The notes: a model not told the origin generated them from the letters alone. Shown: positions 14,985 through 21,232, numbered from the stretch's first letter. The stretch: DNA of 30,652 bases from a virus (IMGVR_UViG_3300045988_047713:1-30652), one strand, 5' to 3'. Translations and numbers: made by a program.

Positions 14985-15214
14985 ACCTGTAACCCTCTTG
15001 TTTTTTGTTTAGTGACAAGATATCTCTTCAACCCGTCGCAACTAATTTCACAATCCCCGCAGGAACCACCATCCAACCAGATGATGCATAGTGTGTGATT
15101 TCGTGGGGTGAGTTACGCTTTATACTCACCGTAGCGCCTGACAATCAGCGGTATCTTCAGCCGGACAATTCCGGGTTACTACATACTTGGTCAGGTATCT
15201 TGTCTATGACAACA

Positions 15215-15258
15215 ACTATACAGATACATGAGCAATCTGTCAAGAATTATTTTAAACC
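15215..15258 (-). promoter_or_regulatory. conserved sigma70-type promoter, copy 5 (minus strand)
   Basis: -35 TTGACA (15243-15238), 17-bp spacer, -10 TATAGT (15220-15215), UP element; about 220-nt leader to ATG 14984. Confidence 0.55.
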
Positions 15259-15319
15259 TCTGTTACCACCTGTCACCCGTGGTAAACTGTACAGAACAGT
15301 TACAAACGGACCGATAATC

Positions 15320-17083
15320 ATGAATAAGTTTACTGGAAATATTCATAATTACCCGCGTTGGCGGGATGCCTACGCAAATGACGAACGTATCTGGCGAAAA
15401 GGTCAGCCACGACCGGATTATAAACAGTGTTACATTGACCGCATTAACCTGTTAAATCGTATGCGCACGGATCGGGCAATTGTCCCGGTGCTGAAAAAGT
15501 ATTACGAAACAAACCCGGTAGCGTTTATCCTCGACTGGGCGTTTACTTACGACCCGCGTAACGTCGGTACTGAGTACACGCCTAACATGCCTTTCTGCCT
15601 TTTCGAACGTCAGATCGACATGGTTCAGTTTGTTTATGAAGCGCTTGAAGACAAAGAGAAAGGACTTTGGGAAAAATCGCGAGACTATGGCGCGACCTGG
15701 GTAGCCTGTGGTTTGTCCGTATGGGCGTGGCTGTATCGTCCTGGTTCTTCAGTTGGCTGGGGATCACGTAAAGAACAGCTTGTTGATAAACTGGGCGACC
15801 CGGATAGTATTTTTGAAAAGATTCGCCAGATTATCCGCGCATTACCACCGGAATTACGCCCGGTCGGTCTGCGTGAAAAAGACCATCTGGTTTACATGAA
15901 ATGTATCAACCCAGAAAACGGTGCAACAATTACTGGTGAAGCTGGCGATAACATCGGTCGTGGTGGTCGTAAATCTGTCTATTTTCTCGACGAGGCAGCA
16001 CACGTAGATCGTCCTGAACTGATCGAAGCGTCGTTGTCAGCTAACACCAACGTTCGTATCGACATCAGTTCAGTTAACGGTGTTGGTAACGTTTTTTATC
16101 GTAATCGTAAAGCTGGTCTGGAATGGGAACCAGGTAAGAAATTACCCCGTGGTAAATTGCGTGTCATGGTTCTGGACTGGCGTGATCACCCGGCTAAAGA
16201 TGACGAATGGTATAAGCGAGAAAAACAATCGTTCGCTGAAAAAGGTTTACAGCATATTTTCGCACAGGAAGTTGACCGCGATTATGCCGCTGCTGTTCAG
16301 GGCGTGTTGATTAAAGCTGAATGGGTACGCGCTGCTTTTGACGCGTTCCGTGACACAGAATGGCGCAAAGCTAACGGACTACTTACACCAACAGGTCAGC
16401 GTATCGCCGGACAGGATGCCGCAGACGGTGGTGAAGACGCAAGCGCACTGGTAATTGCTCACGGTGTATTCCTGACACATCTGCAACTTGACCACAGGGG
16501 CGCTGAACTGGCTGCACCAGGAATGTTGACGATGGCTAATATGCTGGGTGTTGATGAATACTGGTACGAAGTTAACGGTGTTGGTACAGGCGTTAAAGTA
16601 GCGGCAAATGACCGGAAAGATACTCTACGCTTCCGTGTGCGCCCGTGGTTACCGAACGGAAAAGTGGTGGATCCAGGTGGTGATATTATCGGTGGTACGA
16701 AACCTGGCGATAAAGACCGTAAATCAAACAAAGATTATTTCTCAAATTATAAAGCACAGGCATCGTGGGCGTTACGCCTGCGATGTCAGCGAATTTATAA
16801 ATGGTATGTGGAAGGTCAACCACAGGATCCAGACGAAATTATTCTGATTGATCCATCACTGGAAAATGCACAACGGTTAGAGGCTGAGTTAAGTCAGCCA
16901 ACATATACCAGTAACGGTGCCGGGAAGATTGTGATCGACAAAAAACCAAATGGAAGTAAGTCGCCAAACTTTTTCGATGCTGCGGTTATTGCACTATCAC
17001 CAAAACGCACTGAATTTGTCGAAGAACCATTTACTGGTGGTGTGAATCCTGTTGGTACGCCTGATTACGGTGACATTTTTTAA
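15320..17083 (+). CDS. terminase large subunit (TerL)
   Basis: 587 aa from ATG 15320; ERQIDMV...GLWEKSRDYGATWVACGLSVWAWLY (Q-motif plus deviant Walker A), Walker B VYFLDEAAH, nuclease-domain acidic cluster GQDAADGGEDASALVIAHG. The in-frame extension to 15095 is rejected because it would encode across promoter copy 5. Confidence 0.8.
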   Translation: MNKFTGNIHNYPRWRDAYANDERIWRKGQPRPDYKQCYIDRINLLNRMRTDRAIVPVLKKYYETNPVAFILDWAFTYDPRNVGTEYTPNMPFCLFERQIDMVQFVYEALEDKEKGLWEKSRDYGATWVACGLSVWAWLYRPGSSVGWGSRKEQLVDKLGDPDSIFEKIRQIIRALPPELRPVGLREKDHLVYMKCINPENGATITGEAGDNIGRGGRKSVYFLDEAAHVDRPELIEASLSANTNVRIDISSVNGVGNVFYRNRKAGLEWEPGKKLPRGKLRVMVLDWRDHPAKDDEWYKREKQSFAEKGLQHIFAQEVDRDYAAAVQGVLIKAEWVRAAFDAFRDTEWRKANGLLTPTGQRIAGQDAADGGEDASALVIAHGVFLTHLQLDHRGAELAAPGMLTMANMLGVDEYWYEVNGVGTGVKVAANDRKDTLRFRVRPWLPNGKVVDPGGDIIGGTKPGDKDRKSNKDYFSNYKAQASWALRLRCQRIYKWYVEGQPQDPDEIILIDPSLENAQRLEAELSQPTYTSNGAGKIVIDKKPNGSKSPNFFDAAVIALSPKRTEFVEEPFTGGVNPVGTPDYGDIF

Positions 17084-17090
17084 ACAGTGT

Positions 17091-17120
17091 GGCGGGATTA
17101 TTCCCGTCATTTTCTTTTTT
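17091..17120 (+). terminator. rho-independent terminator after TerL
   Basis: Stem GGCGGGA / TCCCGTC (one G-U pair), 4-nt loop, followed by ATTTTCTTTTTT; the T-run doubles as the UP element of promoter copy 6. Confidence 0.5.
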
Positions 17121-17156
17121 AATTCTTGACAAATTACATTATAAATGTTTGTAAAT
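17112..17156 (+). promoter_or_regulatory. conserved sigma70-type promoter, copy 6 (plus strand), -10 ambiguous
   Basis: -35 TTGACA (17126-17131) with conserved flanking AATTC...AATTAC; candidate -10 TTGTAA/TGTAAA at 17149-17155. Confidence 0.45.
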
Positions 17157-17190
17157 TATCTGTTAGATTAATGTAACACGTCTATACTCC

Positions 17191-17207
17191 TGCAGGTAAC
17201 CAATCGG
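17191..17207 (+). promoter_or_regulatory. palindrome/hairpin in the 5' leader of the Gly-rich gene
   Basis: GGTAACC-AATC-GGTTAC (6-bp perfect arms), followed by the palindrome TTAATTAA; lies between the promoter and RBS CAGGAG. Confidence 0.35.
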
Positions 17208-17244
17208 TTACAGTTAATTAACATTCTCTCACAGGAGTTTCAAC

Positions 17245-17943
17245 ATGTCTGACATGACTTTAGTTCCCACTGGCGGTTTCGGCGGTGAAGCTGGCGCGGC
17301 TGCACTTGGTGGTGGTATCGGCGGTCTTATCGGTTCCTGGTTCGGTAACGGCTGGGGTGGTGCCGGTGGTTGGGGTGGTCGTGGTATTGGTGCTGCTGAA
17401 GGTGTTGTTGTTCAGAACTCTCTGGATACTAACGCTATTCTTCAGGCTATTAATGCGGCTTCACTGGCTAACATTCAGGGTCAGAATGGTACTAACCTGA
17501 CTGTTGAACGCTCAGCAGCTTCTACCTATAACGGTCTGACCCAACAAAACACACAAAACCTGCTGGCAAACGTTCAAGGTTTTGCAGGTCTGAACACGCA
17601 GATTCAACAGGGTACTAACACTGTGACCAATGCGATCTGTGCGTCTGAAACTGCTGCACTGACTCGTTCTTTCCAGGCACAGTTAGCGGCTGAGAAGTGT
17701 TGCTGCGAAACCAACCTGAATATCGAACGTCAGGCAGAAGCAACTCGTGCACTGATCCGTGACCAGTTCGCACAGTCTCAGGCTGTTCTGATTTGTGACC
17801 TGAAATCTCAGATTCAAACCCGTGACTTCCAGTTGTCTCAATTGTCACAAACGTCTCAGTTGGCGTGCAAAATTAACCAGGTCGATCAGCTTATTAACTT
17901 CAAGCTGCCTACTCCGCAAACTCCACCGACTGGCTGCTGCTAA
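17245..17943 (+). CDS. Gly-rich N-terminus / Gln-Asn-Thr-rich / Cys-cluster protein (unknown function)
   Basis: 232 aa; GGFGGEAGAAALGGGIGGLIGSWFGNGWGGAGGWGG glycine-zipper-like N-terminus, internal CCC, C-terminal PTGCC; CAGGAG RBS. Confidence 0.6.
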   Translation: MSDMTLVPTGGFGGEAGAAALGGGIGGLIGSWFGNGWGGAGGWGGRGIGAAEGVVVQNSLDTNAILQAINAASLANIQGQNGTNLTVERSAASTYNGLTQQNTQNLLANVQGFAGLNTQIQQGTNTVTNAICASETAALTRSFQAQLAAEKCCCETNLNIERQAEATRALIRDQFAQSQAVLICDLKSQIQTRDFQLSQLSQTSQLACKINQVDQLINFKLPTPQTPPTGCC

Positions 17944-17954
17944 TTGGTCAACTA

Positions 17955-17978
17955 AGCGCCTCTGTACGGGGCGCTTTA
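17955..17978 (+). terminator. weak terminator/attenuator-like hairpin between the Gly-rich and His-rich genes
   Basis: Stem AGCGCC / GGCGCT with 9-nt loop, followed by only TTT; may give partial termination or transcript stabilisation. Confidence 0.3.
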
Positions 17979-17993
17979 ACAGGAGATAAGAGT

Positions 17994-18353
17994 ATGCATT
18001 ACAAACCGTATTACGTTATCAAAAAAGACGATGATGACGATGAAGAGGAAGATGTAGAAATTCATCACCATCATCATTATCACCACGGGCATCACCCGGA
18101 CACGATGGGAGTATTTCATCATGATAGCTATGCTGGCGAACATGGTTCAGTTATGGCCCATGTTAAAGCACGTATGGATAACCCTCCTTCGACTTGGGCG
18201 TCGTACCACGATAAGCCCGGCGGGATGATGTCCATTGTTGAAATGGAATATCGCGAACTGATGGAAGAAAAAACCGAAGGTTCGACGTCTGGTATTAAAA
18301 AAGAGCTAACAGATCTGGCTGCCGCCTGTATCAACGCGCTTAAAAAGATGTAA
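17994..18353 (+). CDS. acidic His-rich protein (DDDDDEEED followed by HHHHHYHHGHH)
   Basis: 119 aa; AGGAG RBS; strongly biased composition read directly from the translation. Confidence 0.55.
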   Translation: MHYKPYYVIKKDDDDDEEEDVEIHHHHHYHHGHHPDTMGVFHHDSYAGEHGSVMAHVKARMDNPPSTWASYHDKPGGMMSIVEMEYRELMEEKTEGSTSGIKKELTDLAAACINALKKM

Positions 18354-18369
18354 CTAACAGGAAACCGAC

Positions 18370-18873
18370 ATGCAGAATATTAACGCAGGTATGGGTGTCA
18401 CCCAGTTTAACGGTATGAAACCGCGAAGCACTATTAACATTGGTGGTGTGGAGTGGTCGTTACGTCGGGATGCCACTGACTCAACAACAATGTTTCCTCA
18501 TCCGAAGGTAAGCTGGCTTAACGCTGGTTGTGAACCGATGGGTGATGGTCGTTTTCATTACTGTTGGATTTTGGGTGTGATTCCCCCGACACCGGGGACA
18601 ATCGAACGACCTGTTAATGTGATGTATGTTGGTTTCCATCAATTTAAAATTAATATCGCACCTAATTCAATTAGTCAGGCTGATTTAGACAGGATGCATG
18701 TTTATGTCAGCGATACTTCTCATTTTGCTGGTGAATTTGTCAGTAAGTTTTTAGGTACAGAACCTGAACCTGTGGAAACCCGTGAAAATATCAGTCCGTG
18801 GCCCCCGATGAATGATCCTCGTGAGCAACCAAAAGTAGCAAAAAATAAGGTAAACGAAGATGACGAAGAATGA
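18370..18873 (+). CDS. hypothetical protein (167 aa)
   Basis: AGGAA RBS; acidic C-terminus. Confidence 0.5.
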   Translation: MQNINAGMGVTQFNGMKPRSTINIGGVEWSLRRDATDSTTMFPHPKVSWLNAGCEPMGDGRFHYCWILGVIPPTPGTIERPVNVMYVGFHQFKINIAPNSISQADLDRMHVYVSDTSHFAGEFVSKFLGTEPEPVETRENISPWPPMNDPREQPKVAKNKVNEDDEE

Positions 18874-19114
18874 AGGGGTAGACAAAGTAATCGAAAGTCT
18901 GGGGTTACGCGCACACGTAATCGTAGACGAAGGTCACAGTCAAGAAGCGATCATGAAGTCGGCATTTAACGATTTTAAAGCGTTGGGTTCAATGAGTGGG
19001 ATCATGGCAGTGATGACTACCGGGAAATTGAGCCAGCAACAGTTAGACCTGGCGCAACGTATCGCTGTGAAAGTAATTGCCGTTTTAGGTCTTAAAGAGT
19101 CAGAAAAAGCGTAA
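18860..19114 (+). CDS. hypothetical protein (84 aa)
   Basis: ORF overlapping the upstream stop by 14 nt. Confidence 0.45.
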   Translation: MTKNEGVDKVIESLGLRAHVIVDEGHSQEAIMKSAFNDFKALGSMSGIMAVMTTGKLSQQQLDLAQRIAVKVIAVLGLKESEKA

Positions 19115-19128
19115 AAAAGGAGGTTGCT

Positions 19129-19293
19129 ATGTGTTGTAGAACATCGTGTTGTCTGGGAAGTCCTGCTACGCAATTTGGTCTTCTTCAATCACAGATTGCA
19201 CATACTCAGGCCGTTTTCAGAGGGTTTACCAGTCCGTTCATAGTACCATTACAGTTTTCCGCGTTCACGTTTAGGCCTTTTGTATTTTACTGA
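19129..19293 (+). CDS. small Cys-rich / Phe-rich peptide (54 aa)
   Basis: Perfect AAGGAGG RBS 5 nt upstream of the ATG; MCCRTSCCLGSP...FTFRPFVFY; ends just before the terminator. Not in ORF track. Confidence 0.4.
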   Translation: MCCRTSCCLGSPATQFGLLQSQIAHTQAVFRGFTSPFIVPLQFSAFTFRPFVFY

Positions 19294-19301
19294 TCGACTT
19301 T

Positions 19302-19327
19302 GCCCCGGAACTGTCCGGGGCTTTTTT
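19302..19327 (+). terminator. rho-independent terminator
   Basis: GCCCCGG-AACTGT-CCGGGGC followed by TTTTTT. Confidence 0.75.
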
Positions 19328-19602
19328 CAACGTCTGAAAGATGAAAGAACAGCGAGGCTAACAGAACCTAAACCGAATATGACGGCGTATGTTAACTGAT
19401 GTTGAAGTTTCACAAAACCGTAATAATCGCTTTGTAATTCCACGATATCAAAAGCAATTGAAAAACTGGTTACCAGCAACATGATTGAAAGAACACGAAT
19501 CAGAGCAACTGCTAATCCTATCACCCCTTGTTCTTTTTTCTCAGTTGTAATAACGACAACAATCATTAACAGAAGTGAAAAAGCAATGTACATGTATTCC
19601 AT
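19327..19602 (-). CDS. membrane protein (91 aa, about 3 TM helices)
   Basis: Hydrophobic segments throughout; ORF track. Confidence 0.55.
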   Translation of the reverse strand: MEYMYIAFSLLLMIVVVITTEKKEQGVIGLAVALIRVLSIMLLVTSFSIAFDIVELQSDYYGFVKLQHQLTYAVIFGLGSVSLAVLSSFRR

Positions 19603-19607
19603 AATGA

Positions 19608-19769
19608 TTAGTCCCGATAAACTTCAGTACACCCATAAACTTTACCAGGGTTGTAAGCCTGTTCAGCTTGTAAAGCACCCTGACACTGTTCGAACGTCAT
19701 GATACGTTCTGTCACAGGTTCAATAGTCACACCATGCAGAACAAGCACCAGTACATAACCAATTAACAT
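19608..19769 (-). CDS. small protein with N-terminal hydrophobic segment (53 aa)
   Basis: ATG 19769 overlapping the upstream stop; MLIGYVLVLVLHG... Not in ORF track. Confidence 0.3.
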   Translation of the reverse strand: MLIGYVLVLVLHGVTIEPVTERIMTFEQCQGALQAEQAYNPGKVYGCTEVYRD

Positions 19770-20098
19770 TTTCTTAGAGTCTCCCGCCAGTTCAGCCCGT
19801 GTAGGTTTACAGTTGCAAGCCTCACTTTTGGGATACCGTAACGACGATTATCCCAAAATTCATCACAGAGTTCTGGTTCACTAAAATACCCGTAAACACC
19901 CCCGTAACTATCCGTGGCTATATAGTCAATATCTTCAGGAACAGTTAAAGACAAACCAAAATAATTGACAGTTTTATAACAGTTAACATTAAACAGCGTC
20001 ATTTTACAATCTGGTGCTTCTTCGTGAATATCCCACGATTTACCACAATGCGAACATTGATATTCATCATTACAACGAATAGCGTTTACATGGTTCAT
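19763..20098 (-). CDS. hypothetical Cys-containing protein (111 aa)
   Basis: ORF track; CSHCGKS...C. Confidence 0.5.
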   Translation of the reverse strand: MNHVNAIRCNDEYQCSHCGKSWDIHEEAPDCKMTLFNVNCYKTVNYFGLSLTVPEDIDYIATDSYGGVYGYFSEPELCDEFWDNRRYGIPKVRLATVNLHGLNWRETLRKC

Positions 20099-20115
20099 GA
20101 TTGTTCTCCTGTTAT

Positions 20116-20316
20116 TCAGTTGACTAAGTAATAAATGTTATCACGGGCCAATTCATCAGCGTCTTCCTGACATTCGATTAAGGTGTTATCGTCATGCCAT
20201 TCTTTAGCACATTCACGCGCTTGTTTACGACGTTTTTTCTTACTGTTACGAAGGTCTAAAAATATTTTTAATTCTTTATCATAAGCTCTTACCATACGTT
20301 TCATTGTACTTTTCAT
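20116..20316 (-). CDS. hypothetical protein (66 aa)
   Basis: ORF track; ATGA coupling upstream. Confidence 0.45.
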   Translation of the reverse strand: MKSTMKRMVRAYDKELKIFLDLRNSKKKRRKQARECAKEWHDDNTLIECQEDADELARDNIYYLVN

Positions 20317-20600
20317 GATTGTTCTCCGATTGCTTTAGCAACAATAGTTTTCATTTTCATATAAATTTCATATTCAGAATTACGTTTTGCGATAGCTAAT
20401 TGTAAAACTTTTAACAGTTCCGGCGCTGCAGCGATTAATCGTGCGTTTGCTAATTGTTCTGTTTTGTCACCGTTATAAGTTGGTGTATATGCAATCTCAA
20501 CACCTGAGTCTGAAACAATATCGGGAGTATTATCATCATTGATAATAACTTTCCACGAACCTTTTGTACCTTTAAACTGGTTCATAATTATTACCCTCAT
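20313..20600 (-). CDS. hypothetical protein (95 aa)
   Basis: ORF track; coupled. Confidence 0.45.
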   Translation of the reverse strand: MRVIIMNQFKGTKGSWKVIINDDNTPDIVSDSGVEIAYTPTYNGDKTEQLANARLIAAAPELLKVLQLAIAKRNSEYEIYMKMKTIVAKAIGEQS

Positions 20601-20893
20601 TTATAATAAAGTTCTTTTTCAAGCCTGATGATTTCTTCTTTCAACCACGAAAGTTCTAAAAGAGTTTGTTTACCCCACGCCATCACTTCGGCATACCGTT
20701 TACACTCATAACTGTGTTTTTTACGCTCGTAACAGGTAAGCTGTCGTTGACAACGCGTGCTATTTAAAAGGTGAAACCTTATGTTTACACTAACGCGGTT
20801 TTCAATTAAATCATCATTTATACAATCGTTTACGTTGCGCCAGTCTTGTCGCATTTTAGCTAGTGCAACAAGTTTTTCAGCCCGTGTGGTCAT
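20597..20893 (-). CDS. hypothetical protein (98 aa)
   Basis: ORF track; coupled. Confidence 0.45.
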   Translation of the reverse strand: MTTRAEKLVALAKMRQDWRNVNDCINDDLIENRVSVNIRFHLLNSTRCQRQLTCYERKKHSYECKRYAEVMAWGKQTLLELSWLKEEIIRLEKELYYK

Positions 20894-21201
20894 TTAACTG
20901 TTTCCGGTACAAACCACATTGACGCGAGATACGCACACCCGGCAATTTTATGTTCGTGTTTAGGTTCGAAACTACCAAGAATTACATTGATGTGTGCATG
21001 GGCCTGTTTAAAGTTCACACCGTTAACAGCAACTGCGTATTCTTTCAGACCATTGAAAAACCATTTGCTGACCCACTGATTCCACGGGTTAGAATTTTCA
21101 AAAAATTCTTTCGGAATACTACCCATCGCCGGGAGAAATTCAGCAATGTTTTTAGGTCCAAAAGCAATATCCAGTTGTGTAATATTTTCATTCGGTTTCA
21201 T
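20890..21201 (-). CDS. hypothetical protein (103 aa)
   Basis: ATG 21201 with AAGGA RBS preferred over ATG 21210. Confidence 0.5.
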   Translation of the reverse strand: MKPNENITQLDIAFGPKNIAEFLPAMGSIPKEFFENSNPWNQWVSKWFFNGLKEYAVAVNGVNFKQAHAHINVILGSFEPKHEHKIAGCAYLASMWFVPETVK

Positions 21202-21232
21202 AGTTATCATCCTTCATTCATTTGATGACTAA

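Follow-up and report, generated by a model that had tools for sequence, protein, structure and literature searches.

What is a run of small genes with extreme amino acid compositions doing between the TerL and portal genes of a siphophage? The question is raised by IMGVR_UViG_3300045988_047713:1-30652, a viral DNA of 30,652 nucleotides (the window, by which we mean the whole stretch analysed), where a first-pass annotation had marked positions 17112-19327 as one transcription unit encoding a glycine-zipper protein, an acidic His-rich protein, two unknowns and a Cys-rich peptide, and had suggested metal binding, DNA mimicry and membrane or envelope activity for them. The window belongs to a 9NA-like siphophage (Sashavirus/Nonanavirus); over 17000-19400 it shares 98% identity with Sashavirus BDX09P1, Escherichia phage PJ16 and BASEL phage KarinMuster (Bas82), and about 86% with the Salmonella phages Sasha, Sergei and Solent. 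Comparison of its copies shows the cassette to be a mobile operon that has spread among six or more unrelated enterobacterial phage groups. Our best explanation, to which we give about an even chance, is a moron-type accessory operon acting on the host, in which the first gene product would be the effector, the third and fourth its partners, the second a pyrophosphatase and the fifth a thiol-rich peptide.

All five open reading frames (ORFs), here called G1 to G5, can be read from the sequence where they had been placed, and with the compositions claimed for them:

17245-17943, plus strand: G1, 232 amino acids (aa)
17994-18353, plus strand: G2, 119 aa
18370-18873, plus strand: G3, 167 aa
18860-19114, plus strand: G4, 84 aa; its start overlaps the end of G3 by 14 nucleotides (nt)
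19129-19293, plus strand: G5, 54 aa; 19117-19293 with its ribosome-binding site

Such compositions might be chance or low-complexity artefacts in non-functional ORFs. The CCC cluster of G1 is expected 0.44 times by chance in the window and is not unusual on its own, and the acidic and His stretches of G2 differ among homologues. However, when every stretch of 60 aa or more without a stop codon in the window is counted, the expected numbers are only 1e-8 for the His run of G2, 4e-6 for its D/E run and 1e-10 for the Gly density of G1, and even CCC is highly conserved among homologues. All five products have PHROG matches, each to a family whose function is unknown (9288, 9157, 8329, 7239 and 25697 for G1 to G5, respectively), and substitutions in G1-G4 cluster at third codon positions when the window is compared with Solent or with Hafnia phage yong3. 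For G5, comparison with 9NA, Sasha and Solent gives 24 substitutions in 54 codons, 20 of them at third positions, with 16 synonymous and 4 non-synonymous changes; its Shine-Dalgarno sequence and terminator are retained in every copy, and Greed and CAjan (Seuratvirus) have a homologue of 67 aa, 46% identical, in the corresponding place; yong3 has an unannotated one. The 54-aa ORF thus reads as a real gene, and the concern that it might not be translated is answered by evolutionary rather than direct evidence. There are hundreds of homologues with gene order kept, including 215 of G1 in 177 records of the phage collection and G3 in 140 records. This spread and the purifying selection evident in all five ORFs refute the artefact explanation, which we consider hardly credible; all five are real genes.

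Spread and loss of the cassette

Homologues of G1-G4 stand in the same order in Sashavirus, Seuratvirus (read in yong3, Greed and CAjan), Hanrivervirus/Tlsvirus (KarlJaspers and JLBYU09), the dwarf myovirus Yersinia phage PY100 (ORF29-32) and Edwardsiella phage eiAU-183 (Eiauvirus; O197_08-11); in Nonagvirus (JenK1 and relatives) matches to G1 and G3 lie about 0.5 kb apart on one strand. The cassette proteins are 60-80% identical between phages whose structural genes are unrelated, the myovirus included. Most copies close the late block, directly behind lateral tail-fibre genes; that of PY100 lies among small early-type genes beside dam and ssb, distant from the fibre genes. Among metagenomic and T4-like contigs, L015 (98.7 kb, metagenomic) and L019 (T4-like) carry G1-G3-G4 without G2, L018 (a 73.8-kb metagenomic phage contig; 2689-5023) carries G1-G2-G3-G4 beside replication genes with a different, 71-aa Cys-rich ORF at the G5 position, and L017 (T4-like) has G3 without an upstream G1. 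Because phages as distant as L015 and L019 keep G1, G3 and G4 without G2, these three genes form the ancient constant core, to which G2 and G5 are optional additions; G3 and G4, listed earlier as two unknowns, do lack a known family, but their membership of the core with G1 had been missed. Comparison of these loci shows, moreover, that gene order and cis elements (described below) travel together between unrelated phage groups. The T5-like Epseptimaviruses have only a frameshifted G1 remnant after a gene resembling that of the L-shaped tail fibre; in Salmonella phage bux (T5-like; L007, 3752-4350) this remnant is also truncated, and about 40 Epseptimavirus records give the same partial G1 match.

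The cassette has also been lost. Reading 9NA (L003, 4125-4690) against Solent (L013, 1625-3284) shows that 9NA is a Solent-like sequence with a clean 1,078-bp deletion, whose flanks are 99.6% identical and whose junction has a 16-nt overlap. Its gp12 consists of G1 residues 1-45 followed by an out-of-frame fusion into the interior of G3, G2 is deleted entirely, gp13 is G3 from an internal Met (about a third of G3 is lost), and G4 and G5 are retained. On this comparison the deletion is recent, and gp12 and gp13 of the 9NA annotation are what it left behind rather than genuine genes. 9NA is a laboratory phage propagated on S. Typhimurium LT2, and its deletion shows that the cassette is dispensable for its plaque growth; since it is viable without G1, G2 and part of G3, G1-G3 are not essential virion parts. 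The first-pass view that none of the products is an obvious virion building block is supported, as regards essential parts, by this deletion and by mobility across unrelated virion types.

Signals that frame and divide the operon

The following elements were found around and within the five genes:

17089-17110, with a T run to 17116, plus strand: terminator-like hairpin after TerL, a 9-bp stem followed by TTTCTTTTTT; upstream boundary
17126-17155, plus strand: sigma-70-like promoter candidate TTGACA-N18-TGTAAA, read from the sequence
17183-17188, plus strand: TATACT, a -10-like hexamer 7 nt upstream of the palindrome
17196-17211, plus strand: leader palindrome GTAACCAATCGGTTAC (GTAAC-N6-GTTAC), a putative mRNA 5' stem-loop or operator at +1
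17954-17977, plus strand: GC-rich hairpin AGCGCC...GGCGCT with TTT directly after G1, -17 kcal/mol
19302-19321, with T6 to 19327, plus strand: strong intrinsic terminator, an 8-bp stem with 7 GC pairs; downstream boundary

The terminators at the two ends mark the boundaries of the proposed transcription unit exactly, so the framing stands; the GC-rich hairpin after G1 turns the simple single unit into one with an internal attenuator. A terminator is annotated at the site of the post-TerL hairpin in the AVIO78A record, and the terminator after G5 is conserved in all Sashavirus and 9NA loci, with different hairpins at that position in yong3 and Greed. We infer that TATACT at 17183-17188 belongs to the cassette promoter. 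Sasha, Solent, yong3, Greed, KarlJaspers, JLBYU09 and eiAU each have a -10-like hexamer (TATACT, TATGCT, CATACT or TATTCT) in the equivalent place, 7-8 nt upstream of the palindrome across loci, with TTTACAA-like repeats about 11 nt apart further upstream. The other candidate, TTGACA-N18-TGTAAA, is annotated as a promoter in the AVIO78A record and was not among the results of the consensus scan.

The exact palindrome GTAAC-N6-GTTAC occurs once in the 30.6-kb window. A further 9 loci, belonging to four phage groups (PJ16, AVIO78A, Sasha, yong3, Greed, CAjan, KarlJaspers, JLBYU09 and eiAU), each have a single copy, 33-50 nt ahead of the start codon of G1; among them the flanking sequence has otherwise diverged. 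RNAfold predicts a stem-loop in every leader examined; pairing in Solent is maintained through a G-U wobble, and the leader of 9NA, where G1 is deleted, has the palindrome with a mismatch. PY100, L015 and L018 have palindromes of the same 5+6+5 geometry with other arm sequences at -34 to -53; these were chosen as palindromes, which makes a formal count of pairs circular for them. We read the palindrome as a stem-loop at or near the mRNA 5' end, the alternative being an operator overlapping +1; the operator consensus sequences of TyrR, OmpR, ArcA and CpxR do not fit it.

An equivalent of the hairpin after G1 (AAGCGCC...GGCGCTTTT) is found in Sasha, yong3, Greed and KarlJaspers, eiAU has a variant, and other hairpins follow G1 in L015 and L018; it bears a terminator annotation in the records of Sasha and AVIO78A. 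It is probably a leaky terminator or attenuator, and G1 would therefore be made in excess over G2-G5. An Rfam scan gave sub-threshold matches only; the mir-598 match (18027-18096, minus strand; 33 bits against a gathering threshold of 69, E 1.8e-4) was dismissed as a repeat-driven artefact because its site is the run of GAT/GAC/GAA and CAT/CAC codons for the acidic and His tracts of G2.

Family searches recognise TerL and the portal protein on either side of the cassette, which does lie between them as first described, but occupies only the first 2.2 kb of a 4.3-kb gap. The rest (19327-21210) holds a minus-strand gene set of 7 small ORFs converging on the cassette terminator, including one of 91 aa (19327-19602), for which the Sasha and Solent annotations give three transmembrane domains, and one of 111 aa (19763-20098), which is Cys-rich with CxxC and further Cys. 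Upstream, a mechanical call gives the TerL ORF (15095-17083) 662 aa from a GTG start; annotated TerL orthologues have 587 aa (1,764 nt), matching an ATG at 15320 in the window. In Sasha (L012, 1600-3150, minus strand) a 516-aa gene labelled homing endonuclease in RefSeq stands between TerL and the cassette; this insertion is missing from the window and from Solent.

The five products

Scans of the five proteins with Pfam, NCBIfam and PADLOC gave nothing usable, and we found no paper describing these genes in the accessible literature. By profile comparison G2 is the only product that resembles anything known, and it is predicted to be pyrophosphatase-like. Its N-terminus, DDDDDEEED followed by HHHHHYHHGHH (15 His in total in the protein), had drawn attention, and the MazG/HisE-like conserved part of the protein had been missed: across the 91-member G2 family (PHROG 9157) only the C-terminal ~70 residues are conserved. 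This domain has the arrangement E85-x-x-E88, 15 residues, E104-x-x-D107 (ExxE-x15-ExxD), in which E85, E88 and E104 are invariant in two family alignments (A6 and A7) and D107 gives way to E in a few members; we take ExxE-x(12-28)-ExxD to be the metal-binding signature of the all-alpha nucleoside triphosphate pyrophosphohydrolases (MazG, HisE and dimeric dUTPases). When 24 diverse family members were scanned singly, 9 matched PRA-PH (best E 0.0022) and 6 matched MazG (best E 7e-4), and any other family was matched by a single member at most. The profile search against PDB was repeated with the C-terminal domain alone, the first match to 2p06 having come partly from the His tag of that chain; it gave AF_0060 (2p06) at E 0.087 and HisE (1yvw) at E 0.3, in each case over the whole domain. 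In addition, the JLBYU09 record independently labels the G2 orthologue a putative pyrophosphatase. Like MazG (PF03819), the PRA-PH domain of HisE (PF01503) and AF_0060, G2 has the ExxE-x15-ExxD motif, and its family aligns to the two Pfam models in one register, though below their cut-offs (domain residues 10-60 on PRA-PH 9-60, and 26-68 on MazG 2-45); it differs from them in its N-terminal extension. Its C-terminus is probably that of a remote member of the MazG/HisE superfamily, with fold and activity as predictions.

The extension of G2 comes in two forms, an acidic run with a His tract (the window, yong3, eiAU, P0194, P0199, P0205 and, as HYHHTHHHHHH, L018) and MKIRxAGYxLPR without a His run (Hanrivervirus and Greed). 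Because the His tract recurs in divergent G2 proteins it is probably functional, most simply as a metal-binding tail. Like the His-rich tails of HypB, SlyD, UreE and Hpn it is recurrent, with 10 His in 12 residues beside an acidic stretch; unlike them it sits on a MazG/HisE-like domain and is missing in several lineages, and its binding of metal is putative. The suggestion of DNA mimicry is not supported, since the acidic run is short (9 residues) and variable among homologues, with the basic RRMRRHH in its place in eiAU; the Ocr/ArdA-like class was likewise rejected, a single run of this length not being an extended, conserved carboxylate array.

Of the first 53 residues of G1 (PHROG 9288, E 3e-123) 22 are Gly, and those at 22, 26, 30, 34, 38 and 42 form five consecutive GxxxG motifs in register; the protein contains 65 Q+N+T, CCC at 152-154 and GCC at its C-terminus. 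Its homologues share M(S)D(T)MxL(L/I)P at the N-terminus, GSWFGNGW within a Gly-rich segment, at least one copy of QGFAGLNTxI, (D/K/R)CCC(E/S/G), ATRxLI and LCDxK. CCC is invariant or near-invariant in the enterobacterial phages and present in PY100, eiAU, L015, L019 and L020; the C-terminal GCC(GC) is missing from PY100, eiAU and one clade, and the L018 homologue has no cysteine at all. Structure predictions were made for G1 and G3. The AlphaFold model of G1, built from 33 sequences, has a predicted local distance difference test (pLDDT) score of 56, with residues 1-61 disordered, a single helix at 62-220, and only residues 150-210 reaching 70-75; as a single low-confidence helix it was kept out of fold searches. 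The GxxxG series is real, but a membrane anchor is not supported by a disordered head whose best 19-residue Kyte-Doolittle hydropathy is 1.14, against the usual 1.6 for a transmembrane helix. The class of Gly-zipper membrane proteins was rejected on this hydropathy and the lack of a Pfam match: of the families Gly-zipper_YMGG, Gly-zipper_Omp and Gly-zipper_OmpA, only the first was touched, by 1 of 33 homologues at E 1.5.

G1 itself has no match in Pfam, NCBIfam or PADLOC, and with its profile no PDB sequence scored below E 0.1. Matches of the 33 homologues to Pfam were scattered apart from DUF6160, itself uncharacterised, which 13 of the 33 match (best E 0.015); there is also a weak PHROG match to a "virion structural protein" family (4.6e-4). 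Spanins come as an i-spanin, with an N-terminal transmembrane helix and a periplasmic coiled coil, and an o-spanin, with a signal peptide and a lipobox Cys. G1 was rejected as an i-spanin, having no transmembrane-grade segment and no clear heptad register. Type IV pilin-like and double-glycine leaders do not fit its N-terminus, and no bacterial machinery is known for prenylation- or palmitoylation-like CC ends. Public records call G1 a "lateral tail fiber chaperone" (PJ16; L001, 4246-4944) or a "putative sugar-binding protein" (BASEL records, among them KarlJaspers; L005, 5815-6516), and neither label found a supporting match in Pfam, NCBIfam or PDB.

The G3 model is much better determined (pLDDT 80, with block means of at least 90 over residues 21-110) and shows an alpha+beta fold of six strands and two helices, to which no solved structure was matched. 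Mog1/PsbP-like proteins and holder-type chaperones (DcrB, SciW, EagT6 and PsbP) were among its weak matches, which we treat as a lead only; the fold of the T6SS Eag (DUF1795) chaperones, which go with glycine-zipper segments in effectors, and a Mog1/PsbP-like fold were rejected for want of a significant structural superposition. H44, C54, C65, H90 and H110 are conserved. An exhaustive HMMER profile search of 1.84 billion representatives found only 57 clusters, all of small stand-alone proteins, and the match of the 2,076-aa P0307 looks like a spurious repeat match. In JLBYU09 (L010, 2501-2992) G3 is labelled "putative TerL protein", a label that no search supported. G4 (PHROG 7239) is homologous in six phage groups and has no detected relatives outside the cassette; a small ORF overlaps the end of G3 in most of the distant lineages as well, and the match of G4 to GajA (E 0.015, 12 bits) is noise. 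The G3 and G4 profiles likewise found no PDB sequence below E 0.1, and Pfam scans of all alignment members gave scattered matches only.

G5 begins MCCRTSCC, its ATG 5 nt after AAGGAGG (19117-19123), and has a hydrophobic, Pro/Phe-rich C-terminal half; it matches PHROG 25697 at 1.9e-7, its homologues share the N-terminus MC(G/C)xxxxCCLGSPATQxGxLQxQxA, and it is annotated in 9NA (gp15) and Solent. It has no lipobox and is therefore not an o-spanin. We also rejected it as a precursor of a ribosomally synthesised and post-translationally modified peptide, its neighbours matching no enzyme family except for the MazG-like G2, and as a mimic of the beta-signal of outer-membrane proteins, as it has no export signal.

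What the operon may do

What speaks most strongly against a part in the virion is that G1-G4 keep 60-80% identity, and retain their leader, across phages with unrelated heads and tails, so that their partners must lie in the cassette itself or in the host; together with dispensability and a framed, self-regulated layout, this leads to a moron-type accessory operon. Morons are autonomous promoter-gene-terminator units, usually at the ends of late operons. Like lambda lom and bor, the cassette stands between terminators, with a candidate promoter in the form of consensus-like boxes that recur from lineage to lineage; it is dispensable, as 9NA illustrates, is exchanged among six or more phage groups at differing genome positions, and usually ends the tail block. 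It differs in being carried by virulent rather than temperate phages, in being a four-to-five-gene operon with an attenuator and a leader palindrome, and in that none of its products resembles a known moron product.

As we picture it, then, a self-contained, horizontally mobile accessory operon of many virulent Enterobacterales phages, built as promoter, leader stem-loop or operator, G1, leaky hairpin, G2-G3-G4-(G5) and terminator, would be transcribed by host RNA polymerase, and leader hairpin and attenuator together would make G1 by far the most abundant product. G1, with a disordered glycine-zipper head and a long Cys-bearing helical body, would be the effector, self-associating and acting on a host component conserved among enterobacteria, perhaps in the envelope. 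G3 and G4 might bind G1 as holders or assembly partners; G2 would hydrolyse a nucleoside triphosphate or alarmone-type nucleotide with Mg2+ held at its acidic motif, its His tract serving as an accessory metal-binding tail; and G5 would be a thiol-rich accessory peptide. The benefit would lie in natural hosts (takeover, counter-defence or competitor exclusion), not in virion construction.

Several findings weigh against this picture. The G2 protein of the window by itself has no Pfam match at E ≤0.1, all matches of its family are below threshold (13-18 bits against curated cut-offs of 21.3 and 22), and its domain spans only about 60% of the MazG and PRA-PH profiles. The head of G1 is, as noted, too little hydrophobic to make a membrane helix of the classical kind, what G1, G3, G4 and G5 are proposed to do is read from architecture alone, and promoter and transcription start are predictions. 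Finally, in most lineages the cassette comes directly after tail-fibre or baseplate genes and is co-directional with the late genes, which would fit a role connected with the fibre as well.

The last point is the heart of the main rival, in which the cassette makes a non-essential virion appendage, G1 being a fibre, whisker, decoration or fibre accessory and G3 and G4 its assembly chaperones. Laboratory lambda lost its side tail fibres, and 9NA might have lost the cassette in the same way. Fibre or baseplate genes are its co-directional neighbours in Seuratvirus, Nonagvirus, Hanrivervirus, eiAU, the T5-like remnants, L015 and L019; G1 is Q/N/T/G-rich and modelled as one long helix, its weak PHROG match is to a virion structural family, the PJ16 label names a fibre chaperone, and an attenuator after G1 would suit a major subunit with minor helpers. 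A docking part, however, is unlikely to stay as similar as G1 does, N-terminus included, across unrelated siphovirus and myovirus virions; the cassette lies away from fibre genes in Sashavirus, PY100 and L018, brings its own promoter-like region and terminators, includes a G2 without an obvious fibre role, matches no fibre or chaperone in sequence or fold, and is absent from a viable 9NA. We regard the appendage as unlikely, and keep it in consideration because the adjacency to tail-fibre genes is striking.

Action at the envelope, with G1 pore-forming or colicin-like, G3 and G4 as holder or immunity proteins, and lysis control, superinfection exclusion or killing of neighbours as the outcome, we judge decidedly unlikely. 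The five GxxxG motifs would suit it, and the layout recalls that of colicin operons, in which the first gene abundantly yields a large protein whose head is Gly-rich and whose body is helical, small genes follow behind a leaky terminator, and a palindrome comes just after the -10. The cassette, by contrast, is phage-borne and shows no similarity to them in sequence or fold, no LexA box, and no domain for cytotoxicity, immunity or lysis; searches for a toxin domain found none, no N-terminal sequence like a signal peptide or lipobox could be read from the five translations (G5, as a non-o-spanin, included), and the hydropathy of G1 is below transmembrane level. That the cassette as a whole serves to bind or shuttle Zn, Ni, Cu or Fe through the G2 His tract, the CCC and GCC of G1, the Cys and His of G3 and the CCxxxxCC of G5 is improbable, although metal binding by its products is plausible. 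The recurrence of His tracts and the conservation of the G1 CCC, of the five G3 residues and of the N-terminal Cys of G5 point that way, but Hanrivervirus and Greed-type G2 proteins lack the His tract, G1 has no cysteine in L018 and no C-terminal GCC in several relatives, no metal-binding family is matched, and there is no known reason for a virulent phage to need such a system.

Within the accessory-operon explanation we would tentatively go one step further, to a possibility that we think less probable than its failure: G1-G3-G4, with G2 and G5 as add-ons, may be an unrecognised phage system acting on the host, in which an abundant helical effector with glycine zipper and Cys, held by a dedicated partner of new fold, tuned by a nucleotide pyrophosphatase and expressed from a portable regulatory leader, serves counter-defence, superinfection exclusion or takeover in many families of enterobacterial phages.

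About 140-180 sequenced enterobacterial phages carry the operon, among them therapy candidates and the BASEL collection phages KarlJaspers, DanielBernoulli, GottfriedDienst and KarinMuster. Their records name its genes "hypothetical" or, inconsistently, "lateral tail fiber chaperone", "sugar-binding protein" or "TerL"; our analysis puts these misleading names right and supplies the gene of a conserved micro-protein, which is missing from most records. The operon is uncharacterised although it occurs widely, has a single domain that can be recognised as enzyme-like, and is neither an artefact nor already explained. A module that hops between phages with its gene order and leader, yet is lost in a laboratory phage, has a pattern typical of functions needed only in natural hosts, and is therefore a tractable candidate for a new function in phage-host interaction.

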